The position numbers and the translations under genes are program-made. Below, in pieces: positions 8,265 through 39,003 of a stretch of DNA of 54,069 nt. The DNA lies in NCBI GenBank assembly GCA_003599175.1, contig QZIY01000024.1, positions 1-54,069 on the forward strand. The letters are read 5' to 3'. Numbering within the stretch: position 1 is the stretch's first letter; every line of letters starts with the position of its first letter. Below the pieces are notes generated by a model. The model was not told the DNA's origin. It worked only from the letters and a program-made list of their open reading frames with translations, and ran no database searches. Origin of the DNA: Candidatus Parcubacteria bacterium (GTDB lineage Bacteria > Patescibacteriota > Minisyncoccia > Phycocordibacterales > UBA2100).

Positions 8265-8353
8265 GGAGAGGTGGCTGAGCGGTCGAAGGCGATGGATTGC
8301 TAATCCATTATACGGGTAAAACCGTATCGAGGGTTCGAATCCCTCCCTCTCCG
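8265..8353 (+). tRNA. tRNA-Ser (anticodon GCT), long variable arm, no encoded CCA
   Basis: Acceptor GGAGAGG/CCTCTCC. Anticodon stem ATGGA/TCCAT with loop TTGCTAA. Variable arm TATACGGGTAAAACCGTAT. T-arm GAGGGTTCGAATCCCTC. Confidence 0.9.
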
Positions 8354-8434
8354 CAGGAACGTGAGGCGGTGTTACGCGACCGTTCCGCATTGAAAAATAT
8401 GGGTATTGTGCAATCGCGTCCACTCCGTCAAAAA

Positions 8435-10288: not shown

Positions 10289-11623
10289 TTATTTCTCCAG
10301 CGTCACCAATCCTTTCGTGAGTACCAGTTTGCTTTTGATACACAGCAGTAATTCACGCTTCTCGGTCACGCTACCTTCTTTGAGCAGGTACTTTGCGTAA
10401 TCGCGCAGGTCAATTTCTTTTTGTGGCTTGGCCTCCGCTGCAGTACCGGTAAAGGCACGCTGGAACTTCCGCATGCGCTCCACCTCCGCCTCGAATTTCT
10501 CCCGCATGCTGATGTTGTTGAGATCGATCTTGTCCATAATCTTTACCGTCTGCGTAATCAACTCTTCCTCGCGCACGTAGCCATTCTTACAATCCCTGTC
10601 CCGTGCGCGCGTGCAGCCGTAGTAGACGTAGCGATTGGAACTGCCATCTTTCAGCTTCTTGAATTTCTCCTCCGCGGTGATGCCCGATCCGCACGCTCCG
10701 CATAGCATGAGTTTGATAAAGGCGAACTCTTTAATATCCGAGCGTATGATGCGGTCGCGCTTCAACTGTTCCTGCACTTTGTCGAACAATTCCTTGGTGA
10801 TGAGCGGTTGGTGTTTGCCGTCGTACCAGATGCCGCTCTTAACTGGGTACTCGAAAACACCGTAGTAAAAGGGATTTTGGAGTACGACGTACACACTGCT
10901 CAACGTCATGTTTTTGTTCCCTCGACTCTTGAAGTTGATCTCGAACTTGAGCCACTGGTATATTTTCCTGCCGCTCCATTTTTCGTTCGCTACTTTCTCG
11001 AACATCTGCTTTACCACTGGCGCTCGCAGAGCATCTACCACCGCGTGGCATTTTCGATCCATGTGTTTCTCGTTGCTGTAGCCGACCGGCGCGACACCGG
11101 GACGTAGTCCCATCTCGCAGCGGGTTCGTAGCCCCCGCTTCACATTCACGCCACGATTGTCGTTCTCGAGCTTTGCTTGCGAGCCGAGAATCATGAGAAG
11201 AAACTTCTCGTTCGGATTATTCCTAAAGCTCTGACTGTGCGTCCGTATCTCTTGTAGTCCACCCGCGTCCATGAGGTCGACTATCTTGCCGAGGTCACCC
11301 GCGTTTCTACTAATACGATCCGGTGCCCACGTTAGGATGCCGTTGTATTTACCGGCCCGCAGGTCCTCGACTATCTCATTGAAGACCGGTCGTGTGCCAG
11401 TCTCTTTTGCCGAGTGGCTCTCTCGCTTCATCTCCACGATCTCCAGCCCCTCTCGATCAGCGAGCTGGAGCATCTCCTTAATTTGCGAGTCGATGGAGAG
11501 CACTTGGCGCTCCTCCGACTCAGTGCTCTTTCTTGCATAGAGGCAGTATTTGACCTTAACGGGCTGCGCTTGGGGTTGCCTCCTAATGTCCCCCAGAGCA
11601 GGCCTTGGCACTATATTTTCCAT
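10289..11623 (-). CDS. large serine recombinase (copy 1)
   Basis: Resolvase catalytic N-terminus YARKSTESEERQVLSIDSQ...DRISRN, recombinase domain, Zn-ribbon CGACG...YYGC, coiled-coil tail. ATG taken at 11623; the ORF track TTG is at 11704. Confidence 0.85.
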   Translation of the reverse strand: MENIVPRPALGDIRRQPQAQPVKVKYCLYARKSTESEERQVLSIDSQIKEMLQLADREGLEIVEMKRESHSAKETGTRPVFNEIVEDLRAGKYNGILTWAPDRISRNAGDLGKIVDLMDAGGLQEIRTHSQSFRNNPNEKFLLMILGSQAKLENDNRGVNVKRGLRTRCEMGLRPGVAPVGYSNEKHMDRKCHAVVDALRAPVVKQMFEKVANEKWSGRKIYQWLKFEINFKSRGNKNMTLSSVYVVLQNPFYYGVFEYPVKSGIWYDGKHQPLITKELFDKVQEQLKRDRIIRSDIKEFAFIKLMLCGACGSGITAEEKFKKLKDGSSNRYVYYGCTRARDRDCKNGYVREEELITQTVKIMDKIDLNNISMREKFEAEVERMRKFQRAFTGTAAEAKPQKEIDLRDYAKYLLKEGSVTEKRELLLCIKSKLVLTKGLVTLEK

Positions 11624-11768
11624 ACACCACAAGGGATGACGCAGACCCTTGAAGGAGTCCAGGGCGTCCGAGAGGGCCGAGGTGTTGGTAACTTGCCCAC
11701 GCAATACGACGTTTAATCAATGCATCAACAGCTTCGCTTTCTATCCGAAGCTCGTTATACTATTTTCA

Positions 11769-12958: not shown

Positions 12959-13483
12959 ATGCGAGCCATTCTCAGAATATTCACAAACGTGCATTCGACG
13001 CTTCTTGCGCTCGCGGTGTCGCTGTTTGTGTTTGTGCTTGCGGTGTGGCTCCCGAATCTGCGCTTGTTGTTCCAGGTGTGGACAGATGCGTCAGTTTCGC
13101 TAGGAGATAAAGTCGCGCTTCCGATCAACTTGTTGCCTTCCATCGCCACTAACTTCACGCCCCTATCGGCCTCGTACACCATCGCAATCGCCATTCTCAC
13201 CGGTATCAACGTGGCTCTCATAATCCATCTGATTAAGACAAGGGGGATGCTCGGACAAGGCACTGTAGTTGGCGCTTCGGGCATATTCACTGGCGCGTTA
13301 GGGCTTGGATGTGCTGCCTGCGGCTCGATAATTCTGACATCACTTGTCGGCACGGCGGGCGGAGTAGGCATACTCGCCCTACTGCCACTTCGTGGAAGCG
13401 AGTTTGGCATCATCGGTGTCGTGCTCCTTGGGTATTCCACCTACTTGTTAGCAAAACAAATCAACAAACCACTGGTTTGTTAA
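12959..13483 (+). CDS. polytopic membrane protein with intramembrane CxxC (possible DsbB/VKOR-like partner)
   Basis: GALGLGCAACGSIILT within a TM segment, directly downstream of the DsbA-like gene. The function is inference only. Confidence 0.4.
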   Translation: MRAILRIFTNVHSTLLALAVSLFVFVLAVWLPNLRLLFQVWTDASVSLGDKVALPINLLPSIATNFTPLSASYTIAIAILTGINVALIIHLIKTRGMLGQGTVVGASGIFTGALGLGCAACGSIILTSLVGTAGGVGILALLPLRGSEFGIIGVVLLGYSTYLLAKQINKPLVC

Positions 13484-13502
13484 TTAAAACGGCTCTTAAA
13501 CT

Positions 13503-13934
13503 ATGAAAAATATAAAAACATCTTACATTCTTATCGGACTCGCAGTGCTCATCATCGGCGGATTCGGCTTAAGTAAATACCTGCAATCGAGTGATCCAAA
13601 TGTCGTCTCACAAAGTGGCTTTCATTGGCATCCTACGCTCACTATTTATGTGAAGGGAGAAAAACAAGAGGTACCGGCAAATATCGGTATCGGTGCTGTG
13701 CATCAACCGATGCATACGCATACTGAAGATGCCGCAGCGGGCGTGATTCATCTCGAATTTGCCGGAGCTGCGAAGAGAGAAGACCTTATGCTCGGGCAGT
13801 TCTTTAGGAATTGGGGTAAAGAGTTTAATTCATTCGGAACGAGCGTGAAGATGACCGTGAACGGGAAAGAAAACACCGAATTGGAAAATTACGTCCTACA
13901 AGAGAAAGACAGAATCGAACTCCGATACGAGTAG
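13503..13934 (+). CDS. membrane-anchored extracytoplasmic protein with His-rich patch
   Basis: N-terminal TM, then FHWHPTL and HQPMHTHTED motifs. No recognised family. Confidence 0.45.
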   Translation: MKNIKTSYILIGLAVLIIGGFGLSKYLQSSDPNVVSQSGFHWHPTLTIYVKGEKQEVPANIGIGAVHQPMHTHTEDAAAGVIHLEFAGAAKREDLMLGQFFRNWGKEFNSFGTSVKMTVNGKENTELENYVLQEKDRIELRYE

Positions 13935-13948
13935 GCCACTTGTGCTTC

Positions 13949-13965
13949 ATACCCTATAGGGGTAT
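13949..13965. promoter_or_regulatory. CsoR-type operator (GC-tract pseudo-palindrome)
   Basis: ATACCCTATAGGGGTAT lies 12 nt upstream of the 13977 ATG and resembles known CsoR operators (TACCC-N-GGGGTA). Confidence 0.5.
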
Positions 13966-13976
13966 CATGTGGACAT

Positions 13977-15107: not shown

Positions 15108-15802
15108 ACATACACTATGCCTGGCTGACATGGAGCTTGATATTGCTCGGCATCTGGCTCGTGATATACGCGACGCTGGATTCGAAGGAAAAGAAGCGCG
15201 AGATGCTTGTGGTGAGCCTGTGGACATCGCTCCTCGGCCTTTCGGAGCCGATTTTTGTACCCGCCTACTGGTCGCCGCCGTCACTTTTTAATCTTGCGCT
15301 CACGACACGGTTCGATATCGAAAGCCTCATCTTTGCATTCGCGATCGGCGGAGGCGCTTCGCTCATTTACGAGCGGATATTTGCGACACGCCACGAAGTC
15401 GTGCCGCCTTCTGCCCGGCATGATCCGCGTCATCGCTACCACGCATGGGCGCTTCTCTCGGCTCCGATCGTGTTTGGCATCCTCTATGTCGCAACGAGCC
15501 TCAACCCCATCTACAGCGCGTCTATCGCATTAGTGGTAGGCGGGGTTGCCTCTCTGTATTGCCGCCCCGACCTTTGGAAAAAGATGCTCGTGAGCGCATG
15601 CATCTTTCTCGTCCTCTATTTCTTGTACTTTGGAACGCTTATCGCTCTCTACCCAGGATACGTGGAGCAGGTGTGGAATCTCAAAGCCATCTCCGGCATC
15701 CTCGTCATCGGCGTTCCGATCGAGGAGCTACTGTTTGCACTCAGCTTCGGGTTCCTCTGGTCGAGCATCTATGAGCATTTCACGTGGCGAGCCGTGCGAT
15801 AG
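15104..15802 (+). CDS. polytopic membrane protein, function unknown
   Basis: About 7 TM. The GVPIEELLF motif is reminiscent of lycopene-cyclase-domain proteins, but this is a weak call. Confidence 0.4.
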   Translation: MNIHYAWLTWSLILLGIWLVIYATLDSKEKKREMLVVSLWTSLLGLSEPIFVPAYWSPPSLFNLALTTRFDIESLIFAFAIGGGASLIYERIFATRHEVVPPSARHDPRHRYHAWALLSAPIVFGILYVATSLNPIYSASIALVVGGVASLYCRPDLWKKMLVSACIFLVLYFLYFGTLIALYPGYVEQVWNLKAISGILVIGVPIEELLFALSFGFLWSSIYEHFTWRAVR

Positions 15803-15809
15803 CAATTAT

Positions 15810-16667
15810 ATGAAAAAAGAAATACACATTACCAAAGCATCCGGTGAACAAGAGTTATTCTCTGAAGCAAAGCTGCGTCGTTCATTGCAACGAGTCCATG
15901 CGTCACCTGATACGATCGATACGGTTGTCGTGCAAGTTGAAGCCGAATTGCGGCAGGGCATGAGCACGGCGGACATATACCGTAAGGCATTTTCGCTCCT
16001 TAGGAAAAAGAGCCGCCCCACCGCCGCGCGCTACAGTTTGAAAAACGCGTTGATGGAACTCGGCCCCACAGGTCGTCCGTTCGAGCATTTTGTCGGAGAA
16101 CTCCTAAAGTCGGAAGGGTTTAATGTCGAGGTGGCGCGAATCGTGCCAGGTGTCTGCGTCAAACATGAGGTGGATGTGGTCGGGACGAAGGGCGATCGGC
16201 ACATTATGGTTGAGTGTAAATTTCATAACAGACCGGGACTTCGCTCCGACGTAAAAATCTCGCTCTACGTACAAGCGCGATTTGAGGACATTGAGCGCCG
16301 ATGGAAAAAAGAGCCGCAGCACGTCAAGAAATTTCACGAAGTATGGCTCGTCACGAACACCAAACTCACGTCCGATGCGACTGATTATGCGAAGTGCGTC
16401 GGCATGACCGCGATCGGTTGGAGTTACCCGCAAGGTAATAGTCTTGAGAACCGCATCGAGCGCGCCGGACTACACCCCGTCACATGTCTCACAACCCTCA
16501 CGCGCTTTCAAAAGAACGCCCTGATGCAGAAAGGTGTCTATCTATGCAAAGAATTACTTGTACGCACTGACGTCTTATCGTCTGTTGGCATAAAAGAAGA
16601 TGCTACCGAGAAGATTCTTAACGAAACGCGACAACTTTGCCAGAAAACAAAATTGTATGAAGAATAA
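15810..16667 (+). CDS. ATP-cone domain fused to Mrr/PD-(D/E)xK restriction-endonuclease-like domain (copy 1)
   Basis: ATP-cone IHITKASGEQELFSEAKLRRSLQRV...TADIYRKAF. Nuclease core HEVDVVG...IMVECKFH. 285 aa, the same length as paralog 19305..20162. Confidence 0.75.
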   Translation: MKKEIHITKASGEQELFSEAKLRRSLQRVHASPDTIDTVVVQVEAELRQGMSTADIYRKAFSLLRKKSRPTAARYSLKNALMELGPTGRPFEHFVGELLKSEGFNVEVARIVPGVCVKHEVDVVGTKGDRHIMVECKFHNRPGLRSDVKISLYVQARFEDIERRWKKEPQHVKKFHEVWLVTNTKLTSDATDYAKCVGMTAIGWSYPQGNSLENRIERAGLHPVTCLTTLTRFQKNALMQKGVYLCKELLVRTDVLSSVGIKEDATEKILNETRQLCQKTKLYEE

Positions 16668-19304: not shown

Positions 19305-20162
19305 ATGACAAATCAAACTCAGTCAAAACAAATACGAATAGTGAAAGCCTCCGGGGAGACTGAGTTATTCAGCGAGTCGAAATTGCGATCCTCTCTCAAG
19401 CGGGCCGGTGCTTCGGAAGAAAGCATCGACGCGATAGTGCGCGATATCACCACAAGACTCCATGAAGGCATGACGACGAAAGATATATATTCTCGCGCAT
19501 TCTCTCACTTGCGCCGAAAGGAACGTCCGACTGCTGGCCGGTATCATTTGCGAATGGCGCTCATGGAACTTGGCCCTTCAGGTCATCCGTTTGAGAAATT
19601 TGTCGGTGCGCTTTTAGAATCCGAGGGGTTTTCAACCGAAGTGTCGGTTATAGCGCAAGGCAGGTGCGTCTCGCACGAACTCGATGTTGTCGGCCATAAG
19701 GGAGAGGAACACGTCATGGTCGAGTGCAAATACCATAATCAGTACGGCATCAAATCAGATGTAAAGATCGCCCTCTACGTGCAGGCGCGTTTCGAGGATA
19801 TAGAAAAGCGATGGAAAGCGGAGCCGGGGCATGGAACAAAATTGCACGCGGTCTGGCTCGTCACGAATACCAAGCTCACGACCGATGCGACGCGCTATGC
19901 CGAATGCGTCGGCATGCGTGCGCTTGGCTGGAGCTATCCGTCGATCGGCAGTCTCGAACAACTTATCGAGCGATACGGACTCCATCCCGTGACTTGCCTG
20001 ACGACGCTTAACCGCCTGCAAAAGCAGGAAATGATGCGACAAGGACTCGTATTGTGTAAAGACGTTTTGGAACAAGCAGATGTCCTGCGGAAAGTGGTCG
20101 GAAATCCTACACGTGCCGAGGATGTATTACAAGAGATACGCGACTTAACAAAAACTATATGA
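19305..20162 (+). CDS. ATP-cone domain fused to Mrr/PD-(D/E)xK restriction-endonuclease-like domain (copy 2)
   Basis: IRIVKASGETELFSESKLRSSLKRA...; HELDVVG...VMVECKYH. Roughly two-thirds identical to copy 1 by eye. Confidence 0.75.
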   Translation: MTNQTQSKQIRIVKASGETELFSESKLRSSLKRAGASEESIDAIVRDITTRLHEGMTTKDIYSRAFSHLRRKERPTAGRYHLRMALMELGPSGHPFEKFVGALLESEGFSTEVSVIAQGRCVSHELDVVGHKGEEHVMVECKYHNQYGIKSDVKIALYVQARFEDIEKRWKAEPGHGTKLHAVWLVTNTKLTTDATRYAECVGMRALGWSYPSIGSLEQLIERYGLHPVTCLTTLNRLQKQEMMRQGLVLCKDVLEQADVLRKVVGNPTRAEDVLQEIRDLTKTI

Positions 20163-27270: not shown

Positions 27271-27987
27271 ATGTCATTTGGTTCATATCTAAAAAAACAA
27301 AGGGAATCGAATAATTGGACTATAAAAGAGCTGGCCGAACGGCTCGGTTTTTCGTCGAGCTACATCAGCCAGCTGGAGAATGGAGCTCGCATCCCGTCCC
27401 AAAAACAGCTGGCCATTTTTGCTAAGGCTTACCAACTCCCCGAGGAGGAAGTCAGGAAGCAGTGGACGGAGGGAAAGATCCAACAGGTCAGTAAGGACGG
27501 TAATTACAAATTTGGCATCACAGATGCCGGTGATAAGCGTGTACACGAAGTCGCCAATAAACTCGAAGAGGGATTGGAGGAATTAAAAAAAAGTTTTTCC
27601 GGTGACGGCCATTTTAAATTGCCAGTACTCGTAGCAATTCCTATTGATGATCTCGATGGTCATCTGAGTCGAACGAGTGACTTTGTGTTATTGCCAAAAG
27701 ATAACGTCATACCGGGTCACCGAGTATTTGGACTGCGTGTGTCCGATCTGACGCTCCCCGATGCCGGCATTCTTTCCGGAGACTTCATCATTCTCGATGC
27801 AGACATTCCTGCAAAGAATGGCGACATCGTGATCATGAGTACACCGGATGGTCTGGTCATGAGTTATTACCAAGAACGGGGCGATCACCTCGAACTTCGG
27901 CCGGAGAGAGATGGTTTCAAAAAGACCTACCATCTCCAAGAAAGCAAAATGATAGGTCGTCTGGTCTATCACATAAAAAAATACTAA
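27271..27987 (+). CDS. CI-like repressor: XRE HTH plus S24/LexA-like C-terminal domain (catalytic dyad apparently degenerate)
   Basis: WTIKELAERLGFSSSYISQLENGAR. C-terminal GDFIILDADIPAKNGDIVIM...LELRPE. Confidence 0.8.
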   Translation: MSFGSYLKKQRESNNWTIKELAERLGFSSSYISQLENGARIPSQKQLAIFAKAYQLPEEEVRKQWTEGKIQQVSKDGNYKFGITDAGDKRVHEVANKLEEGLEELKKSFSGDGHFKLPVLVAIPIDDLDGHLSRTSDFVLLPKDNVIPGHRVFGLRVSDLTLPDAGILSGDFIILDADIPAKNGDIVIMSTPDGLVMSYYQERGDHLELRPERDGFKKTYHLQESKMIGRLVYHIKKY

Positions 27988-28087: not shown

Positions 28088-29653
28088 ATGAACTACTTAA
28101 TCTACGGCCGTGTCTCTACCTCTCGTCAGGCCGAACGAGAACTGAGTATTCCGGCACAGGTGAAAGCATGTCAGAAGTACGGCATGGATCACCACTGGAC
28201 TCTCGCACCAGACGGCATTTATGAGGAAAAGGGCGAATCAGCTCGAACAGTTGAACGTCCACAGCTTCAGAAAATGCTTCACCGAGCAAAGACGGACGGC
28301 AAGGTCGATGTGATCTTGATGCACAAGTTGGACCGTATGTGTCGTAACGTCGCCGACTATGCGGCCATAAAGATGATGCTCAAAAAGCACGACGTCCGAT
28401 TGATCTCGGTGGTCGAGCAGTTCGACGAGTCTTTCTCCGGAGAGCTGGTCGAGAACATCATGTCGTCGATCGCTCAGTGGACGTCCCAGAACATCAGCTG
28501 GGAGGTCAAGAAGGGTCTCAAGGAGGCCGTAGAGCGTGGTCGTTTTCCCGGATACGCACCAACCGGTTACTTAAACGATAAGAAAACAAAGTCACTCATC
28601 GTCGATACTCTGCGAGCACCATTCGTAAAGATGGCGTTTGAGTTCTACGCCACCGGCAAGTACAGCTACGATTCACTTGCCGCCGAGCTTGCTAAGCGTG
28701 GCTTCAAAAGCAAATACGGAAATCTGGTGAGACGAACATCGATCGAGCATATCCTGATGAACCCGATCTACTACGGTCTGGTTAAAACTCGTTCAGCAAC
28801 GTGTCAGTCAAGTTTTCCGACACTCATCACCAAAAAACTCTTTGACGACGTTCAGGAGATCATCCAACAGCACAATCACTCTGCCGATCGCAGTCGTAAG
28901 CATTCATATCCGATGGCTGGATTCATGCGATGCGCCGTCTGTGGTTCTACACTTTGTGGGCAGACGCAAAAAGGTCATCTCTACTACGCATGCACCCATT
29001 GGAACGATAAGACCTGTTCGGAGCGCAAATACATCCGCTGGGAGACGGTTGAGGATCAGGTCGCAAATCATCTCTCAAGAGTGCAGTTGCCTGATCGGTT
29101 TAAGAAGGTCTTGGATGCCTACTTCCAGCACTTCGCCAAGGAGCGAATGGGTCAGGAAGAGAGGGAGCGAAAGACTCTCAGGCAGGAGCTAGTAAGGGTG
29201 CAACAGCAGATCCGGAACATCGTCGTGGATCGCTCAAAACGCATCATAGACGCTGATGTGTTTATAAAGATTCAGGACGAGCTCTTAAAGGAGAAAGAGA
29301 TGTATCAGGAACGTTTGTCGATCCTTGAGGGTAAGTCGGACAAATTCGTGCAGAAGTTTAACGAGATACTCGACTTTACGGAGCATGCTGATAAGGTGTT
29401 CCGAACCAGTGGCATGCACCAGAAGCGAACGCTGGTGAAGCTCTGTTTTGAGGGCTTCACGGTGCAAAATCAAAAACTGACGCCAATATGGACGCCAGTC
29501 TTTGATGTTCTTATGGACTTAAACTCTAGCAATTTCGAACCCCCAAAAGTCGGTGGCAAGGGCTCAAAAACTCTTGCCGTGACTAAGGTTCAAAGTTGCC
29601 AATCTGGCGGAGGGGGAGGGATTCGAACCCTCGATACGGTTTTACCCGTATAG
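28088..29653 (+). CDS. large serine recombinase/integrase (copy 2); last ~15 codons overlap tRNA-Ser on the opposite strand
   Basis: YGRVSTSRQ...LDRMCRN catalytic domain, recombinase domain, Zn-ribbon CAVCGS...YYAC, coiled coil. The C-terminal GGGGGIRTLDTVLPV is a translation of the tRNA complement. Confidence 0.85.
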   Translation: MNYLIYGRVSTSRQAERELSIPAQVKACQKYGMDHHWTLAPDGIYEEKGESARTVERPQLQKMLHRAKTDGKVDVILMHKLDRMCRNVADYAAIKMMLKKHDVRLISVVEQFDESFSGELVENIMSSIAQWTSQNISWEVKKGLKEAVERGRFPGYAPTGYLNDKKTKSLIVDTLRAPFVKMAFEFYATGKYSYDSLAAELAKRGFKSKYGNLVRRTSIEHILMNPIYYGLVKTRSATCQSSFPTLITKKLFDDVQEIIQQHNHSADRSRKHSYPMAGFMRCAVCGSTLCGQTQKGHLYYACTHWNDKTCSERKYIRWETVEDQVANHLSRVQLPDRFKKVLDAYFQHFAKERMGQEERERKTLRQELVRVQQQIRNIVVDRSKRIIDADVFIKIQDELLKEKEMYQERLSILEGKSDKFVQKFNEILDFTEHADKVFRTSGMHQKRTLVKLCFEGFTVQNQKLTPIWTPVFDVLMDLNSSNFEPPKVGGKGSKTLAVTKVQSCQSGGGGGIRTLDTVLPV

Positions 29654-29696
29654 CGATTTAGCAAACCGCCGCACTAGGCCACTATGCGACCCCTCC
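29605..29696 (-). tRNA. tRNA-Ser (anticodon GCT) with encoded CCA
   Basis: Reverse complement: GGAGGGG...GCGGT-TTGCTAA-ATCGC...TATACGGGTAAAACCGTAT...GAGGGTTCGAATCCCTC-CCCCTCC-G-CCA. The 38-nt variable arm/T-arm block is identical to tRNA 8265..8353. Confidence 0.9.
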
Positions 29697-29714: not shown

Positions 29715-30710
29715 TCAGTTCTTGTATCTCTTCAAATGTTTTGGATTATGGCTTCCAATCAAAGCAAAATACCTTTTTAGATCTGCCTTACTGTCTAACC
29801 ATACGTCATATTTCGTAACGCGCGGATTCAAACCTATATCGGCGAGAATTTTTGCAACGCTTATCTGAAGCGGACGCGAGTGGCTGCAAAAGGAGAGCTT
29901 TTTATAATTATACCGTTTCCCACTGGCTATATACGAATGCGTAAAAATTGTTCCATCTGTATCGATGAGCCCACGCACACAAGCGATAGAATAATCTCTG
30001 TTTTTCTTTATCCAATCAGGAATGTCGAATTGCTGCGCTACCTTATTACCGATTGGCAAACCGTGCTCGTGCAAATACAAAACAAGTGCTTTTCTCGATA
30101 TGGTGATGTAATTCACAGAATTTTTGGGGTGATGGTATGTTTGCGGCGTCAGTTTAAATAATCGCTTAATCAATCTGGTCACAAAGCGGCTGTAGGGAAG
30201 ATCAGCGACATGATGCAAACTTATCACCACTTGATATTCGCTGATACCACCATCGCCCATAAGGATTCCAAAAAATTCAGCGAGCTCAGCGCTCTGTCTT
30301 GGGGTATGGATCTTTTTGGGCTGCAGGATCGGTGATTCACTCAATTTGCCCTCTTGATCCCACCACTTCTTCCACGCTGCATTTCGCGTTGTCTCATCGA
30401 ATTGCATCTTCCCGTATTTCTTGATGACAGCTTGCGCCCCCTTCAGGCCCGCAACCTTCGCGTGTGCATATCTTTCTCGCGTTTGCATACGCTTTGGCAA
30501 TGGCACATTCGATGTTCGTGATAGGAGTTGCGCACACGCGAGCGGCATCGGAAACTTTTCGCGACTCCAATCACGCAGCGTGCGCATGGAACAATGACAG
30601 AGGGCGGCCATTCGCTCCATGCCTATCCGTTCTTCGACAGCCAACAAGAATTTTCGCTGCTCGCCGCGCTTGAGTACGATCCGAGGACTAGATATAAACG
30701 ACTCTAGCAT
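29715..30710 (-). CDS. free-standing LAGLIDADG-family endonuclease-like protein (copy 2)
   Basis: LAEFFGILMGDGG and ACVRGLIDTDGT. Roughly two-thirds identical by eye to 7251..8246. TGgTAAAAT lies 6 nt upstream of the ATG. Confidence 0.8.
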   Translation of the reverse strand: MLESFISSPRIVLKRGEQRKFLLAVEERIGMERMAALCHCSMRTLRDWSREKFPMPLACAQLLSRTSNVPLPKRMQTRERYAHAKVAGLKGAQAVIKKYGKMQFDETTRNAAWKKWWDQEGKLSESPILQPKKIHTPRQSAELAEFFGILMGDGGISEYQVVISLHHVADLPYSRFVTRLIKRLFKLTPQTYHHPKNSVNYITISRKALVLYLHEHGLPIGNKVAQQFDIPDWIKKNRDYSIACVRGLIDTDGTIFTHSYIASGKRYNYKKLSFCSHSRPLQISVAKILADIGLNPRVTKYDVWLDSKADLKRYFALIGSHNPKHLKRYKN

Positions 30711-31780: not shown

Positions 31781-32480
31781 ATGAGCGACGAGGACCTTCA
31801 AATTGAGGCAACTGCATTGGCATTTGTAAAGTCACACGAGAAGGACATTATCGAGAAGTTTTGTGGTTCGTGTCAGCAGGTAATAACACCCGTGTCTCTT
31901 TTTATGGCCGGCTCCCCGGGAGCAGGGAAAACAGAAGTTTCAACAAGCTTGGTACGTCGATTTGAAACAGTGCCTGTTCGTATTGATGCTGATGAAATAC
32001 GTTCAATGTGCCCTGGTTATACGGGTGCAAATGCTCATGTGTTTCAGAAAGCAGCGACTAAGGGAGTGCATATTCTGTATGATCACGCGCTTCGTACAAA
32101 CATTCACGTGATATTGGATGGAACATTTGCGTATGCAGATTCCCTAAGAAATATCGAACGATCAATCGATCACAAGCGAAAGGTAGAGCTTTGGTTTATC
32201 TATCAAGACCCAGTGATGGCATGGAAGTTTACGCAGGCGAGAGAGGCCCTCGAATCACGTCGTATATCGAAGGATACGTTTATTACAAGCGTTCATAAAG
32301 TCCAAGGAAAATGCGAAGGCCGCAAAGGAAGCGTTCGGTCCTTCACTTACCCTTAACCTCCTTATTAAGAATATAGACAACAGTGATGGTAGTCTGCATC
32401 TCAATATCCAAAGCACTGATCTTGACCCACATATCGGGCAAGCCTATACTGCAGATGAGCTATCGCGCTTACTGGTATGA
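31781..32480 (+). pseudogene. zeta-toxin-family P-loop kinase interrupted by a +1 frameshift near 32220-32300
   Basis: MAGSPGAGKTE Walker A and RIDADEIR. Frame 1 stops at 32356. The next frame reads on as AFIKSKENAKAAKEAFGPSLTLNLLIKN... to a TGA at 32478-80 that overlaps the next ATG (ATGA). Confidence 0.55.
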
Positions 32481-33033: not shown

Positions 33034-33087
33034 GCAGGAGCGTATCGCGCCGTTGGCACAGGAGGGGTTTTGTGGGATAGTTTTGGC

Positions 33088-33453
33088 ATGGCCGAGAGGA
33101 AGACAGCGACTTTGCAGAATTTGGAAAAACAGGTGATCGCGTTTCGTGACCTGCGAGATTGGAAGCAATTTAATAATCCCAAAGACTTGGCCTTGTCACT
33201 TTCACTCGAAGCGGCGGAGGTGTTGGAGCATTTTCAATGGAAGGCGACGCCGGAGGATATTGAGAAGCACATTAAGATGCACAAAAAGGAGATCGGGGAA
33301 GAGCTTTCGGATGTGCTCTATTGGGTGCTCACGATGAGCCATGATCTTGAAATAGATCTTGCCGATGCGTTTGAGAAAAAGATGAGAAAGAATGCCAAAA
33401 AATATCCCCTCAAAAAATCCAAAGGCAAGAGCGCCAAATACAACCAGCTCTAG
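33088..33453 (+). CDS. MazG-like nucleotide pyrophosphohydrolase
   Basis: RDWKQFNNPKDLALSLSLEAAEVLEHFQW...EELSDVLYWVL...KMRKNAKKYP (EExxE/D-type MazG core). Confidence 0.8.
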   Translation: MAERKTATLQNLEKQVIAFRDLRDWKQFNNPKDLALSLSLEAAEVLEHFQWKATPEDIEKHIKMHKKEIGEELSDVLYWVLTMSHDLEIDLADAFEKKMRKNAKKYPLKKSKGKSAKYNQL

Positions 33454-33454
33454 T

Positions 33455-35458
33455 ATGGCGACGATTCAAAGTTTCGAATTCAACGAAACTGGTTTTGAAG
33501 ACATTAGGAACCATCCTCTCGGTAGGGACTGGCCGATTGTTTACATAATCGAAAATGGAAAAGATGTATACATTGGTGAGACGACAAGTGCGTTTGGAAG
33601 AAGCAAACAACATTTTGAAGATGAACGGCGGCTAAAACTAAGAAAGATTCATCTTGTACTCGATGATGAGTTTAATAAGTCAGCAACACTCGATTTGGAA
33701 TCACAGCTCATTCAGTATTTTTCTGCGGAAGGCAGTGTTAAATTGCAAAACCTAAATAAAGGGCTCGTTAACCATAACTTTTTTGATAAAGGCAGGTATC
33801 GCGCAAAGCTTCAGAGCATTTGGGAGCAGCTTCAGCGCATGCTGCTTGTTAGCAAGAGTTTAGAAGAAATTGAAAACAGCGAACTGTTTAAGTACTCTCC
33901 ATACAAAGCGCTAACCGAAGACCAACTCATCGTTGCCGAGGAGCTGTATGAGGCCGTAAAAAATCGTGATGGGGTTACGCATATCGTAAATGGCGGTCCG
34001 GGCACCGGCAAAAGTGTTTTGGCTACATATCTGGCTAAGAGACTGAAAGAGGAACCAGAGACAAAAGATTTGTCGATTGGACTCGTGATCTCTATGTCAC
34101 CACTCCGCAAATCTATTCAGGATGTTTTTTCTGCAATTTCTGGTCTCAACAGAAAGATGGTAGTTGGGCCGAGCGAAGTCGTGGGGCAGAAATTCGACCT
34201 ACTAATTGTGGACGAAGCTCATCGATTGCGCCAGCGAAAATCAATCGTAAATTATGGAGGACATGATCGAGCAAACCGACGGCTTGGTTTGGGCAATGAG
34301 GGAACGGAGCTCGATTGGATATTGATGAGCTCGAAACAGCAAATACTTTTCTATGATGAAAATCAAAGCATTCGTCCTTCCGACATTCACGTCAAGCGGT
34401 TCAAGGATATTGATGCGCGACATCACAAGCTGACTACTCAAATTCGTGTAAAAGGCGGTGATAAATATATTGCGTTTGTCGACGATCTTTTTTCGGGAAA
34501 ACAGGAACTAGATACCGCTTTCGAAAACTATGATTTTCAAATTTACGATGACATCGAACAAATGGTAGAGGATATTAAGAAGAAAGATAAAGAAATGCGT
34601 CTTTCAAGAATAGTTGCTGGCTTTGCATGGCCCTGGATAAGCAAGAATAATCCTGAGGCATTCGACATAGAAATCGATGACACGAAATTGCGCTGGAATA
34701 GTACTACCGAGGATTGGGTTAATTCACCAAATGCGATCAACGAGGTTGGTTGCATACATACCGTGCAAGGATACGACCTCAATTACGTTGGCATTATCGT
34801 CGGACCTGAGCTTGCCTATGATGCAAAGAATGATCGACTGACTGCTGACAAGGATAAATATGAGGATCGGAACGGATGGCAGGGCGTCGAAGATCCGGCC
34901 GAACTGGAGCGTTACATCATTAATATTTACAAGACGTTGATGACTCGCGGGATTCGCGGCTGCTACCTGTACTTCGTCGATAAGGAAACCGAGCGCTATT
35001 TCAAATCGCGACTTGGGCAACAATCGGTTGAAAGTTTCATTCAGCTCGTTAAATCGCCAATAACTGTTGAAATGGTTCAAGTACCGCTTGTAGGGTCAGC
35101 GCCGTGCGGTAATCCGCTGCTCGGAGAGGAAAACATCGAGGAATATATCGAAGTGCCAAAAGCAAAACTTCGATCCGGTGCTAAATATTTTATTGTCCGC
35201 GCTGAAGGCGATTCAATGAATCTGGCGGGAATTCAAAACGGCGATTTGGTGCTTTGCCGACTTGCAGAAAAAGGGGAAACAGGGGATCGAGTTGTGGCAC
35301 TCTTCGATGGGGAATATGTCACGATCAAGGAATATGGACCACGCATTGACGGGATCCGGCAGCTACTCCCTAAAAGCACCAACAAAAGACACTCGGTCAT
35401 AACTCCGGGAGAAGGAGACAGTGTCCAGGGGATTGTACAGGAGGTTCTAAAAGATTAA
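33455..35458 (+). CDS. three-domain protein: GIY-YIG nuclease + DUF2075/SF1-like P-loop NTPase + C-terminal S24 (LexA/UmuD-like) autopeptidase
   Basis: IVYIIENGKDVYIGETTSAFGRSKQH (GIY-YIG). GGPGTGKS and LLIVDEAHRL. IHTVQGYD and MTRGIRGCY. PLVGSAPCGNPLL, GDSM and TIKEY (S24). Confidence 0.8.
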   Translation: MATIQSFEFNETGFEDIRNHPLGRDWPIVYIIENGKDVYIGETTSAFGRSKQHFEDERRLKLRKIHLVLDDEFNKSATLDLESQLIQYFSAEGSVKLQNLNKGLVNHNFFDKGRYRAKLQSIWEQLQRMLLVSKSLEEIENSELFKYSPYKALTEDQLIVAEELYEAVKNRDGVTHIVNGGPGTGKSVLATYLAKRLKEEPETKDLSIGLVISMSPLRKSIQDVFSAISGLNRKMVVGPSEVVGQKFDLLIVDEAHRLRQRKSIVNYGGHDRANRRLGLGNEGTELDWILMSSKQQILFYDENQSIRPSDIHVKRFKDIDARHHKLTTQIRVKGGDKYIAFVDDLFSGKQELDTAFENYDFQIYDDIEQMVEDIKKKDKEMRLSRIVAGFAWPWISKNNPEAFDIEIDDTKLRWNSTTEDWVNSPNAINEVGCIHTVQGYDLNYVGIIVGPELAYDAKNDRLTADKDKYEDRNGWQGVEDPAELERYIINIYKTLMTRGIRGCYLYFVDKETERYFKSRLGQQSVESFIQLVKSPITVEMVQVPLVGSAPCGNPLLGEENIEEYIEVPKAKLRSGAKYFIVRAEGDSMNLAGIQNGDLVLCRLAEKGETGDRVVALFDGEYVTIKEYGPRIDGIRQLLPKSTNKRHSVITPGEGDSVQGIVQEVLKD

Positions 35459-35526: not shown

Positions 35527-37311
35527 ATGAAATATCTAAGCTTTGAAATTCAGGACTACAGGGCCGTCGCGCGGGCCATAATCCCTGTCGGGAACAACCT
35601 GATTCCGATCATTGGCATAAATGAGTCGGGCAAAACGACAATACTCCAAGCAATTCTCGCTTTCGACAAAAACAAGGACAGATATAACAGGGGAGTACAT
35701 CTCGAACACAAAAATAAATACGAACTCGGCGAAAAGGGTGGCAAGGTATCAGCCCAAATTCTCATCGAATCTAAGGACGACCTTGAATGGATTGCCTCAA
35801 AACTCGATTTGAACGTCGCGACTCCGCGATACAAAGCGCTTGAGGCCTTTTTCGATAATAAGAAGCCGATAACCCTAAGCAGGGTCTTCCCCGGTAAGTT
35901 GTATCAAATCGAGAACACCGAATTTGATATTGGTACAAAAAAAGAGAAAAAAGACATGGCAAATGCGTTATACGAAAGATTGCCGTTCGTGCTCTACTTC
36001 GACGATTTTAGTGATCGTGTTCCGGAACAAATCGAATTCTTCCTGAAATCAGAGTTGCAAATACCCGTTACAAGCCCCGAAGGCGGCCAAACCTTTAGGA
36101 CGCAGAAGATCGACAAACATCGTCCTGCCGTAGCAGACGATGAGTGGCATGAGATTCTTGAGGAGGTTTTCAAGAGAGCGGGAAATCATACTCTCGCGGA
36201 CTTTCTCAAAATGAAGGATGGAGACGATCAAAAAGGCCTCATGAGCGATATTCAGGATACTCTCCAGCGGGAAGTGATGGAGGACTGGAAGAAGCTGAAA
36301 AACTACGGCGGTCATTTTGCCGATGAACCAGAGGATCTTGAATTGAAGCTCGACTGGGAGATAACGGATGACGGAGAGAGCATTATATTCGAGTTTCAAG
36401 TCGAAGATCGTACGGCGAAGAAGAGTCGTTTTTTCAGCATTCCGGAACGCAGCAAGGGATTCCAATGGTTCTTTAACTTTACGATGAAGCTAAAGTTCAA
36501 CCCGAAATATCAAGCGAATCAGAAAGGAGCAATTTATCTCCTTGATGAACCGGGGTCGTATCTACACACATCCGCCCAGGAGGAGCTTCTCAAGAAACTT
36601 AGTGACATATCCAACACAAACACGATCCTATACTGCACGCACTCACAGTATCTTCTAGACCCAGAAGTGATAAACATCGCAAAAATAAAGATCGCAAAAA
36701 AGGAGAAAGGAGTGATTGAGGCGGTCTCATTCGACGAGGCGGGGGTTACGAAAAACGAGGGGGCGCTAACTCCGTTGTACCAGGCGCTTCATATTAAATC
36801 TGGTGCGTTCAACAAGCACGTAAAACACCCGGTAATTACCGAGGGAATCACCGATTTCTACTTGTTCAGCTTACTCAAAAAACATAGCTCAGGTTTTTTC
36901 AAGGATGGAATAGATTTTATTCCCGGAGGAGGCGCAAGTCATCTCACGGAACTAATCTCGCAAGCCATAGCTTTTTCAGATTCCTACCTGGTCCTTCTCG
37001 ATTCTGACGGCGCAGGGCGCGACGCGTATGAAAAATACCGTACCTTTTTCGGGGATGAAGAGGCTAAGAAATTCTTCAAATACAGACTTCACTCAACGGA
37101 TGAAAACGTAGTGCTCGAAGACCACGTATCAGCTGGCGACAAAAAAAGATTGAGCGACATCACGGGGGTCGCGGACGTGAAGGCCGCTTTCCCGGTGCTC
37201 TACTATTCCAAAATTAAGGACCAAAAAGAGTTCATCGGCAATCTCGACGCCGACACTCAGAAAAACCTGAGCATCGTCCAAGGTAAGGTAAACGGCATTG
37301 CAAAGAAATGA
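35527..37311 (+). CDS. OLD-family nuclease (ABC-like ATPase + TOPRIM)
   Basis: GINESGKTT Walker A, IYLLDEPGSYLH Walker B, CTHSQ. TOPRIM VITEGITD...LLDSDGAGRD. Confidence 0.85.
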   Translation: MKYLSFEIQDYRAVARAIIPVGNNLIPIIGINESGKTTILQAILAFDKNKDRYNRGVHLEHKNKYELGEKGGKVSAQILIESKDDLEWIASKLDLNVATPRYKALEAFFDNKKPITLSRVFPGKLYQIENTEFDIGTKKEKKDMANALYERLPFVLYFDDFSDRVPEQIEFFLKSELQIPVTSPEGGQTFRTQKIDKHRPAVADDEWHEILEEVFKRAGNHTLADFLKMKDGDDQKGLMSDIQDTLQREVMEDWKKLKNYGGHFADEPEDLELKLDWEITDDGESIIFEFQVEDRTAKKSRFFSIPERSKGFQWFFNFTMKLKFNPKYQANQKGAIYLLDEPGSYLHTSAQEELLKKLSDISNTNTILYCTHSQYLLDPEVINIAKIKIAKKEKGVIEAVSFDEAGVTKNEGALTPLYQALHIKSGAFNKHVKHPVITEGITDFYLFSLLKKHSSGFFKDGIDFIPGGGASHLTELISQAIAFSDSYLVLLDSDGAGRDAYEKYRTFFGDEEAKKFFKYRLHSTDENVVLEDHVSAGDKKRLSDITGVADVKAAFPVLYYSKIKDQKEFIGNLDADTQKNLSIVQGKVNGIAKK

Positions 37312-38252: not shown

Positions 38253-38451
38253 CAATGCTTTGGTCGGAAAGTAACCTGTCCAGCGTCCAGCGCCGATTTT
38301 CTAGAGATCGGTGTCAGGTACCGTTTTGAATAAAACTTGTTTTTGGGGGAAACGGTGTCAGGGAAACGGTGTCAGGTACTTTTTTCTTGATTGGAAACGG
38401 GAAGAAAGCATGGCCTTAAAATGAAATGAGATTTGTGGTATAATGTTATAT

Positions 38452-39003
38452 ATGCAGGATATTGATGCGTTGAGTTTGGAACGGGCTAAAAAGCTCTTTG
38501 GGAGCACTGAGCTCGCTGGCTTTGAGGTTGGCACAATGCGCGGTTTGCAGCAGATCCACGCGTATCTTTTTGATGGGCTCTATGAATTCGCCGGCAAAAT
38601 CCGCACCAAAGACATAAGTAAGGGCGGTTTTCGCTTTGCCTCGCACCTCTATCTCCCTGAGGTTTTGGAGAAGATCGAGCGCATGCCGGAGGCGACGTTT
38701 GAAAATATTGTCGACAAATACGTCGAGATGAACATCGTGCACCCCTTTATGGAGGGCAATGGCCGCTCTATGCGACTGTGGCTCGACTTGATGCTGAAGA
38801 AGAATCTCAAGCAGTGCGTCGATTGGGCGCGTATCGACAAGGTGAGTTATCTCTCCGCGATGGAGCGCAGCCCCGTCAATGCGCTTGAGATACGCGAACT
38901 TCTGCGCAGCGCCTCTACGCTCGACATCGAAAACCGAGATGTCTTTATGAAAGGCATCGAACAGTCCTACTACTACGAAGAGCCTGATTTTTATAAAGAG
39001 TAA
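38452..39003 (+). CDS. Fic-family protein (AMPylase-type)
   Basis: [12 protein letters not shown] (HPFx[D/E]GNGR). ATG 38452 lies 7 nt after the perfect extended -10 TGgTATAAT (38436-44); the track start 38443 falls inside the -10. Confidence 0.85.

Follow-up and report, generated by a model that had tools for sequence, protein, structure and literature searches.

Why should a self-cleaving protease module of the LexA/UmuD type, the Peptidase_S24 (S24) domain, stand at the end of a nuclease-helicase? The question is raised by a gene at 33455..35458 (+ strand, stop codon included) in a window of 54,069 nucleotides, which is the whole stretch of DNA analysed here and covers positions 1 to 54,069 of contig QZIY01000024.1 (forward strand; GenBank assembly GCA_003599175.1) from a Candidatus Parcubacteria bacterium. 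Textbooks describe S24 self-cleavage as the switch behind the SOS response and prophage induction. Among the characterised S24 proteins known to us, what cleavage controls is always a repressor or UmuD, and never a nuclease or helicase carried on the same polypeptide. Each characterised SOS-like S24 regulator cleaves itself on RecA filaments, and the determinants are an Ala/Cys-Gly bond and a Ser-Lys dyad (PMC8565304). On balance, we favour the reading that the S24 module of the window protein acts as a post-translational self-cleavage switch, probably triggered by RecA on single-stranded DNA (ssDNA), which would detach the nuclease-helicase from its tether. Both modules are of known kinds; to our knowledge, an S24 switch placed in cis on an enzyme is undescribed, and the literature search found no description of a DUF2075-S24 fusion or of a MazG-DUF2075 operon. 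The database labels of the family are "DUF2075 domain-containing" and "DNA/RNA helicase domain-containing", to which the multi-COG labels of JGI add "LexA".

The full open reading frame (ORF) extends over 33392..35458 (+) and encodes 688 amino acids. Homologs cover 97% of it, which fits a start at M22; the ATG at 33455 is therefore the most likely start, and the stop codon TAG of the upstream gene (33451-33453) lies 1 nucleotide ahead of it. The residue numbers of Pfam matches refer to the 688-residue ORF, and all others are counted from the methionine at 33455. The resulting protein of 667 residues is, as judged from its sequence, a GIY-YIG nuclease followed by a superfamily 1 (SF1) helicase of the Schlafen-group-3/DUF2075 type, a linker and a C-terminal Peptidase_S24 domain. 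The AlphaFold2 model, built on an alignment of 52 sequences, had a mean predicted local distance difference test score (pLDDT) of 84.1 and a predicted template modelling score (pTM) of 0.70, and pLDDT fell below 50 only in the linker (residues 524-537) and in the cleavage loop (residues 549-553). The low values are consistent with a tethered module that carries a mobile loop. The linker between helicase and S24 (35015..35071, +; residues 521-539) was modelled with low confidence and varies in length and sequence among the homologs; the S24 domain is joined through a flexible linker of approximately 20-30 residues.

The S24 domain occupies 35072..35455 (+; residues 540-667) and was recognised by PF00717, by matches to LexA and UmuD in the PDB and by Foldseek. 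The PF00717 match (residues 565-667 of the ORF) scored 63.7 bits against a cut-off of 23.3 bits, with E=1.6e-17. The NCBIfam model of LexA was matched in its C-terminal part alone (model positions 76-199 of 203), and the score of TIGR00498 LexA was 61.1 bits, below the 110.95-bit cut-off for a LexA repressor. Likewise, NF007621 UmuD matched in its C-terminal part with 44.5 bits, below the cut-off of 110 bits. When the last 147 residues were compared with the PDB by phmmer, they matched Thermotoga maritima LexA (1.5e-13), UmuD (1.1e-9) and Escherichia coli LexA (1.9e-9). In these alignments, the segment PLVGSAPCGNPLL (35084-35122) was placed on PLVGRVAAGEPLL of E. coli LexA, with 9 of 13 residues identical, so that the predicted scissile bond Cys551-Gly552 (TGC GGT, 35105..35110, +) stood over Ala84-Gly85; the same Cys-Gly segment was placed on ..VQCGFP of UmuD, at Cys24-Gly25. 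The predicted nucleophile, Ser587 (TCA, 35213..35215, +), lies within GDSM (GGC GAT TCA ATG, 35207-35218), which aligned with GMSM of LexA (Ser119) and with GDSM of UmuD (Ser60). The predicted general base, Lys625 (AAG, 35327..35329, +), lies within YVTIKEY; its VTIK aligned with VTVK of LexA (Lys156), and the lysine with Lys97 of UmuD. An earlier reading, made from the sequence alone (the sequence-only reading), had picked these three elements by eye; the alignments and a second reading of the codons gave the same bond, serine and lysine, and the Peptidase_S24 profile alignment confirmed the positions.

Furthermore, Foldseek compared the modelled tail with the C-terminal domain of E. coli LexA (chains 7b5g_C, 7zra_B and 7ocj_F) at TM scores of 0.78-0.82 and root-mean-square deviations of 2.4-2.6 Å. 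The low pLDDT at residues 549-553 is what would be expected of a mobile cleavage loop. Pfam, NCBIfam, the PDB alignments and Foldseek thus agree that the tail is, by predicted sequence features and fold, an intact S24 domain of the LexA/UmuD type. Two known roles of such domains were considered and rejected for the whole protein. A LexA-type repressor was set aside because the N-terminal DNA-binding domain is missing and the N-terminus is the nuclease-helicase; a UmuD-like role was set aside because umuC is not adjacent, the score lies under the cut-off and the neighbours are a MazG-like gene and an OLD-family ATPase.

The cleavage apparatus is conserved throughout a large family. The 120 best database homologs, mostly from metagenome-assembled genomes of the Candidate Phyla Radiation (CPR)/Patescibacteria (Jorgensen-, Kerfeld- and Pacebacteria), are 55-90% identical to the window protein and all have the same three-domain architecture, and the Cys-Gly pair, GDSM and the lysine are invariant in 120/120. 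A scan of one genome per species returned at least 558 relatives. From these, the best 80 loci, six loci found earlier and the window were combined and duplicates were removed, which left 83 non-redundant sequences. The S24 domain is present in 61 of them and lacking in 22, and the Cys, the Gly, G-D-S-M and the Lys are invariant in all 61 S24-bearing loci. Two types of S24 were distinguished, namely type A with PLVGSAPCGNPLL (PLVGSAPCG...; 44/61) and type B with PLYDSVGCGELMFAD (PLYDSVGCG...; 17/61). Among type-A proteins, the mean pairwise identity is 73% in the S24 domain versus 61% in the enzyme core.

An exhaustive search of representatives of 50%-identity clusters gave 515 clusters at E<=1e-30 and revealed longer forms of 700-820 residues. 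GIY-YIG, the Schlafen-group-3 helicase and S24 were present together in nine of ten longer forms tested, and these retain Ala-Gly or Cys-Gly, G-x-S-M and T-[VIL]-K. In most of the divergent long forms, the domain escaped a phmmer search that used the window S24 as its single query but was detected by Pfam and local alignment. A Bacteroidota clade of approximately 730 residues, which includes proteins of the cultured Chitinophaga filiformis, Flavobacterium aciduliphilum, Aquirufa beregesia, Haliscomenobacter and Mucilaginibacter, has a core 43% identical to that of the window protein, and its S24 carries an insertion of about 20 residues ahead of the lysine. In the 120 best members of this clade, the scissile Ala (120/120), Gly (117/120), Ser (120/120) and Lys (120/120) are nearly or fully invariant. 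The window protein has the Cys-Gly bond of UmuD, whereas the Bacteroidota clade has the Ala-Gly bond of LexA and CI. Taken from the pattern of residues, there is purifying selection on the predicted cleavage apparatus itself.

Three observations on individual relatives may be added here. The C-terminus of P0245 (700 residues) bears an apparent XRE-type helix-turn-helix instead of S24, and the N-terminus of P0157 is an HSDR_N domain, so the core can also bear accessory modules other than S24. Moreover, locus L040, from a CPR genome, encodes a canonical-looking LexA of 226 residues with GDSM and VTVK (13291..13971, +) about 6 kb from its S24-fused nuclease-helicase, so the S24 fusion coexists with an ordinary LexA.

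The 22 S24-less sequences were informative. They are orthologs of approximately 524 residues, 53-63% identical to the query, from Gammaproteobacteria, Bdellovibrionales, Erysipelotrichia, Cloacimonadota and Falkow-, Kerfeld- and Peribacteria, and they keep the MazG-like partner described below. They end about 5-25 residues past the last helicase helix, inside the linker stretch of the S24-bearing forms, and stop approximately 25-30 residues short of the cleavage-site position. A cut at Cys551-Gly552 would thus recreate the short form with a short additional tail. In addition, core and tail have not always been inherited together. The cores of L013/L007, L021/L056 and L029/L059 are 82-84% identical and carry S24 domains just 39-49% identical, and conversely S24 domains that are 86-93% identical stand on cores 51-61% identical (L020/L034 and L008/L016). 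The core of the S24-less L048 is 75% identical to that of the S24-bearing L009. The window S24 scored 53 bits against the C-terminal domain of E. coli LexA and 32 bits against the S24 of P0123, a Bacteroidota member whose core is 43% identical to the window core over 546 residues (465 bits). On the core phylogeny, types A and B form a mosaic into which S24-less forms are mixed, a pattern that indicates exchange, gain and loss of cassettes; since the neighbour-joining tree of the core was poorly resolved, the argument for a mosaic rests on the pairwise identities of core versus S24.

The simplest reading of these comparisons is that this one position saw several gains, replacements and losses of S24 modules from different subfamilies. 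Accordingly worded, the S24 domain is a detachable add-on to what its S24-less orthologs suggest to be a self-sufficient enzyme. Repeated attachment with an intact predicted cleavage site is the strongest evidence offered here that cleavage may be the selected function, and the S24-less orthologs, the different S24 subfamilies on the same core and the catalytic conservation in three clades lend indirect support to what the sequence-only reading put forward as speculation, namely that DNA damage or phage ssDNA may activate or release the effector through self-cleavage. If this is true, different S24 subfamilies on the same core would represent a convergent, selectable design. The exchangeable cassettes form a natural experiment in modular regulation.

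The enzyme to which the module is attached was analysed in the same manner. The GIY-YIG nuclease domain (33455..33844, +; residues 1 to approximately 130) has the catalytic candidates Y30, Y39, G41, R49, H53, E82 and N99, of which Y30, Y39, G41, R49, E82 and N99 are invariant in 83/83 sequences. The match of the window protein to PF01541 (19.1 bits, E=1.6e-3) lies under the 22.6-bit cut-off, which is passed by seven of ten more distant relatives tested (P0123, P0128, P0140, P0162, P0165, P0196 and P0157; 23-31 bits), and precomputed PF01541 matches are present on several close homologs. The model of residues 1-140 (pLDDT 82.6) had the GIY-YIG domain of UvrC (1ycz) among its top matches, with a probability of 0.95-0.98, a TMt of 0.59, 24% identity and a weak E-value of 3.5e-2. 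The SF1 helicase core of the Schlafen group 3/DUF2075 type (33980..34981, +) matched PF09848 at 7.9e-68 (229.7 bits against a 24-bit cut-off) and contains Walker A GPGTGKS (33995-34015, +) and the Walker B/DEAH motif VDEAHR (34208-34225, +). Walker A GPGTGK[ST] and DEAH, together with the helicase residues K186, D253, E254, H256, Q329 and R331, are invariant in 83/83. No PDB entry was matched by the sequence of the nuclease-helicase part, for which a fold search was used instead; Foldseek matched the helicase part to RecD, SLFN11, RecD2, Upf1 and Dna2. With Walker A and B intact, the protein belongs by its profile match to the Schlafen group 3/DUF2075 SF1 group and is a predicted helicase. The label "nuclease-helicase" appears justified by sequence and model, and Pfam, the conserved residues and the models bear out the sequence-only reading in placing the S24 module at the C-terminus of a GIY-YIG/P-loop enzyme.

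A second gene accompanies the fusion. The gene directly upstream (33088..33453, +; approximately 115 residues) encodes a MazG-like, DCTPP1/RS21-C6-like all-alpha nucleoside triphosphate pyrophosphohydrolase (PF12643, 6.5e-16); its mechanical ORF begins with TTG at 33070, and the likely start is the ATG at 33088. Its nearest relatives in the PDB are an archaeal pyrophosphatase (4qgp, 4.7e-19) and dCTP pyrophosphatase 1 (6sqw, 1.8e-16), and mouse and human dCTP pyrophosphatase 1 match it at approximately 2e-16 over nearly the full length. Pfam and PDB matches thus liken the partner to DCTPP1/RS21-C6 and MazG-like pyrophosphatases; what sets it apart from them is its constant translational coupling to the nuclease-helicase gene. 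A MazG-like gene immediately precedes the nuclease-helicase gene in 83/83 non-redundant loci and, with stop and start codons overlapping as ATGA, in three Bacteroidota genomes; it also stands ahead of a 31%-identical homolog on the Bacillus thuringiensis plasmid pIS56-233. No match to a defence model was found for it with PADLOC. In the loci examined, the MazG-like gene is an obligatory upstream operon partner, and the two genes look like a mobile two-gene module that has apparently gone unrecognised. The sequence-only reading had noted neither this partner nor the wide family of such fusions in CPR/Patescibacteria and Bacteroidota.

How could such a protein work? LexA, UmuD and lambda CI share with the window protein the layout of cargo, flexible linker, cleavage loop and Ser/Lys core, and differ from it in the cargo, which is a nuclease-helicase of approximately 550 residues here, a DNA-binding domain in LexA and CI, and a 24-residue arm in UmuD. 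By analogy with these three proteins, the S24 tail would keep the full-length enzyme in check, and dimerisation between S24 domains or tethering would be the simplest way. A co-protease signal, most likely RecA on ssDNA arising from damage or from the replication of phages or plasmids, would stabilise the cleavable conformation of the loop PLVGSAPCGNPLL, and Ser587, activated by Lys625, would then cut Cys551-Gly552. The freed nuclease-helicase of approximately 551 residues, roughly a natural S24-less ortholog with a short tail, would act on DNA, and the MazG partner on the nucleotide pool. Cleavage, a RecA-ssDNA trigger, activation rather than inactivation and an accessory, defence-like operon are what we infer for this system. 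The sequence-only reading had also raised the idea that S24 occludes the nuclease or ATPase site. The exchange of S24 between cores approximately 50% identical argues against such specific docking, and because the cassettes interchange between such cores, a generic restraint is favoured over a co-evolved occlusion of the active site.

With the S24 switch on the same chain as a nuclease-helicase, a signal of damage or infection would bear straight on the enzyme without a transcription step, and this would be the first case known to us of an S24 module that gates an enzyme itself, instead of a repressor or UmuD. A possible second joining of S24 to an enzyme was noticed, by eye and with an S24 match at 1e-9, in locus L072 (1718..3259, -). 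It encodes a protein of 513 residues whose first approximately 190 residues resemble an entire LexA, with a DNA-binding-like N-terminal region ahead of an S24 part that has an A-G pair and GNSM; what follows appears to be a C-5 cytosine DNA methyltransferase. The nuclease-helicase family spans the hard-to-study CPR and cultured Bacteroidota (Chitinophaga, Flavobacterium and Aquirufa), and owing to the cultured members the hypothesis is directly testable.

What would the released enzyme be for? Tentatively, it may be a RecA-filament-triggered effector, in which filaments of RecA on ssDNA, arising from phage replication or from damage beyond repair, make the S24 tail cut itself off, and the GIY-YIG/Schlafen-type nuclease-helicase and the dCTPase-like MazG protein destroy replicating DNA or abort the infected cell. 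The patchy spread across phyla, the carriage on a Bacillus megaplasmid beside a zeta toxin and an HNH nuclease gene, the toxin-antitoxin neighbours in Aquirufa and the mosaicism favour an accessory, defence-like module. A comparison with known defence proteins is instructive in this respect. Nhi of Staphylococcus epidermidis, AbiO of Lactococcus and the "Nhi-like" proteins, the nearest characterised enzymes built in this way, are anti-phage proteins in which a nuclease precedes an SF1B helicase of the DUF2075/Schlafen-3 type; Nhi has been proposed to degrade phage replication intermediates, and AbiO is predicted to contain a PD-(D/E)XK nuclease. They thus share with the window protein an N-terminal nuclease and a DUF2075/Schlafen-group-3 helicase in one polypeptide; in contrast, they are described as single-gene systems, with neither a MazG partner nor S24 in their descriptions, and the nuclease of the window protein is of the GIY-YIG type.

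Several points count against the preferred reading. With PADLOC, the window protein matched AbiO (7.9e-13) and Nhi (3.5e-12) over residues 163-401 only, that is, the N-terminal half of the helicase, and the matches of an S24-less ortholog and of the Bacillus homolog to AbiO/Nhi were likewise partial; taken together, these matches ranged from 1e-12 to 1e-15. Beyond these weak partial AbiO/Nhi matches and matches to PDC-S14/S41, PADLOC returned nothing from known defence families. Membership in Nhi/AbiO is therefore not supported by these profile matches, and the resemblance appears to be architectural. All-against-all clustering of the ORFs within 8 kb of the 83 loci found no conserved neighbour besides MazG, the next being TspO in 19/83, and housekeeping or stress functions (for example TspO and MsrA/B) account for many of the neighbours. 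The SOS operator GAAC-N4-GTTC had no exact match upstream of the operon in 86 loci, and the Bacteroidetes box CTAA-N5-TTAG was absent upstream in three Bacteroidota loci (L089-L091). Without a LexA-type operator, nothing independent links the operon to the SOS response; control, if linked to damage, would then be post-translational, which fits the S24 domain without being independent evidence for it. A motif search saw no RecA on the fetched loci, a result with little bearing on whole genomes. Finally, a LexA-like protein is cleaved independently of RecA in the case of IrvR (PMC7101444).

The same locus can also be read as a DNA-repair system, an explanation that is compatible with the cleavage mechanism and to which we give a real but minor share of probability. 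Here, the MazG protein would clean the deoxynucleoside triphosphate pool, the UvrC-like GIY-YIG nuclease-helicase would process damaged forks, and the S24 form would be activated in the way that UmuD is converted to UmuD'. S24 is the canonical sensor module for DNA damage, GIY-YIG is the nuclease fold of UvrC and Slx1, DCTPP1-like enzymes are house-cleaning pyrophosphatases, and genes for MsrA, MsrB, TspO and DinB-family proteins lie nearby in some loci. The helicase is moreover homologous to that of human SLFN11, which acts at damaged replication forks. A repair role also fits the nearby stress and repair genes and the UvrC-like nuclease fold. Set against it are the patchy distribution of an accessory family that has clearly spread horizontally between phyla, the cassette-like mosaic evolution, the occurrence on Bacillus megaplasmids and beside toxin-antitoxin genes, the anti-phage function of the nearest characterised relatives and the missing SOS boxes reported above.

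A different objection concerns the direction of the switch. S24 dimerisation might be needed for activity, for example by pairing single-site GIY-YIG domains for double-strand cuts, so that cleavage would monomerise the enzyme or expose a degron and turn it off when RecA filaments form. The sequence evidence for an active S24 applies to this off-switch equally, and the free swapping of S24 between divergent cores fits a generic dimerisation handle. It would also parallel LexA and CI, in which cleavage inactivates by destroying a dimer-dependent function and after which the LexA fragments are degraded. Nevertheless, orthologs that lack S24 but keep the partner gene are both common and conserved, so S24 is not something the core needs in order to function; in addition, the repeated gain of a module that purely destroys its enzyme seems less economical than restraint and release. 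The latter consideration is not decisive, and we hold inactivation by cleavage to be rather unlikely.

S24 might also serve in another way. The domain might mainly dock the enzyme on RecA-ssDNA in a deliver-and-release manner, or the trigger might be other than RecA, such as the protein's own helicase on ssDNA, another co-protease or a phage protein. S24 proteins bind in the groove of the RecA filament ahead of cleavage, a docking domain on a tether would be served well by the long flexible linker, the helicase domain is a motor that binds ssDNA in its own right, and IrvR provides a precedent for a trigger other than RecA (PMC7101444). Against recruitment stands the strict invariance of the Cys/Ala-Gly bond and of the dyad, which indicates that cleavage itself is selected, beyond mere binding; recruitment or a non-RecA trigger was judged improbable.

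Finally, a degenerate S24 that persists as a structural or dimerisation relic, or an artefact, is very improbable: many S24-like domains in databases are inactive and one with SDLT stands in the same window, but no point in support was found for the tail studied here, its catalytic and cleavage-site residues are invariant over hundreds of sequences, independent assemblies and three clades (which effectively refutes an inactive pseudo-protease at the sequence level), and the same fusion occurs on hundreds of independent contigs with a continuous reading frame in all members compared, on which ground an assembly or gene-calling artefact was rejected. The SDLT protein (27271..27987, +) is a CI-like protein with HTH_3 and Peptidase_S24 domains; compared by eye with LexA-like proteins, it has SDLT in place of G-x-S-M and may be non-cleavable or use the threonine.

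The Schlafen proteins offer a comparison for the preferred reading, release of the nuclease-helicase by self-cleavage. The helicase domain is homologous to that of the group III Schlafens (SLFN11, SLFN5 and SLFN14), as the PF09848 score of 229.7 bits and the Foldseek matches to SLFN11 (7zep and 7zel) and SLFN14 indicate. In contrast to the GIY-YIG domain of the window protein, Schlafens have an N-terminal tRNA/RNA nuclease (the slfn core), and the identity in the structural alignment is approximately 13%. Schlafens are recruited through RPA-ssDNA rather than through a self-cleaving module. According to PMC6765204, Schlafen-family proteins inhibit DNA replication and promote cell death after extensive DNA damage. 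A bacterial relative gated by S24 would be a functional parallel to them, with bacterial Schlafen-type helicases linked to a DNA-damage sensor in a way that parallels SLFN11 biology; if the effector role is true, the system would be a bacterial counterpart of the SLFN11-type killing of replication-stressed cells.

With regard to the surroundings, the operon in the window is flanked by a zeta toxin family kinase (31781..32356, +) and a Fic protein (38443..39003), and directly downstream lies an OLD-family protein with AAA_15 and TOPRIM domains (35527..37311, +), which had AriA/Old/GajA-like matches in PADLOC. No GajB- or AriB-like partner was identified for the OLD-family protein, and no epsilon-like antitoxin for the zeta toxin was recognised in the window. 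The three are local company and not members of the system. A zeta toxin also lies near the operon in L022 (11633..12334; CPR) and L087 (1895..2644; B. thuringiensis plasmid). Elsewhere, the toxin-antitoxin or defence neighbours are HigB, PIN and M78 in Aquirufa; on the B. thuringiensis plasmid, they are a zeta toxin and an HNH nuclease. MsrA, MsrB, TspO and DinB-family stress genes recur nearby in some loci. As to a phage origin, IMG/VR gave one distant match and GenBank phages gave only distant or S24-only matches; viral contig collections contain essentially no members of the family.

The remaining observations concern other parts of the window. Two tRNA-Ser(GCT) genes, 8265..8354 (+) and 29605..29696 (-), are nearly identical in a 3' half of about 45 nucleotides but not in the 5' half. 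Each of them has a large serine recombinase gene nearby (10289..11704, -, and 28088..29653, +), and the end of the latter ORF overlaps its tRNA-Ser gene. Between the tRNA genes are found a Cu-ATPase and a multicopper oxidase, with a guanine-cytosine content of 0.45-0.48 versus 0.52-0.54. This arrangement suggests one or more integrated elements. Adjoining the tRNA-Ser gene is a LAGLIDADG-like ORF (29715..30710, -), with a weak Pfam match (1.5e-4) and LAGLIDADG-type motifs visible in the translation. Two ATP-cone proteins are encoded at 15630..16667 (+) and 19305..20162 (+), and one of them is fused to an Mrr-type restriction endonuclease domain, an unusual pairing.

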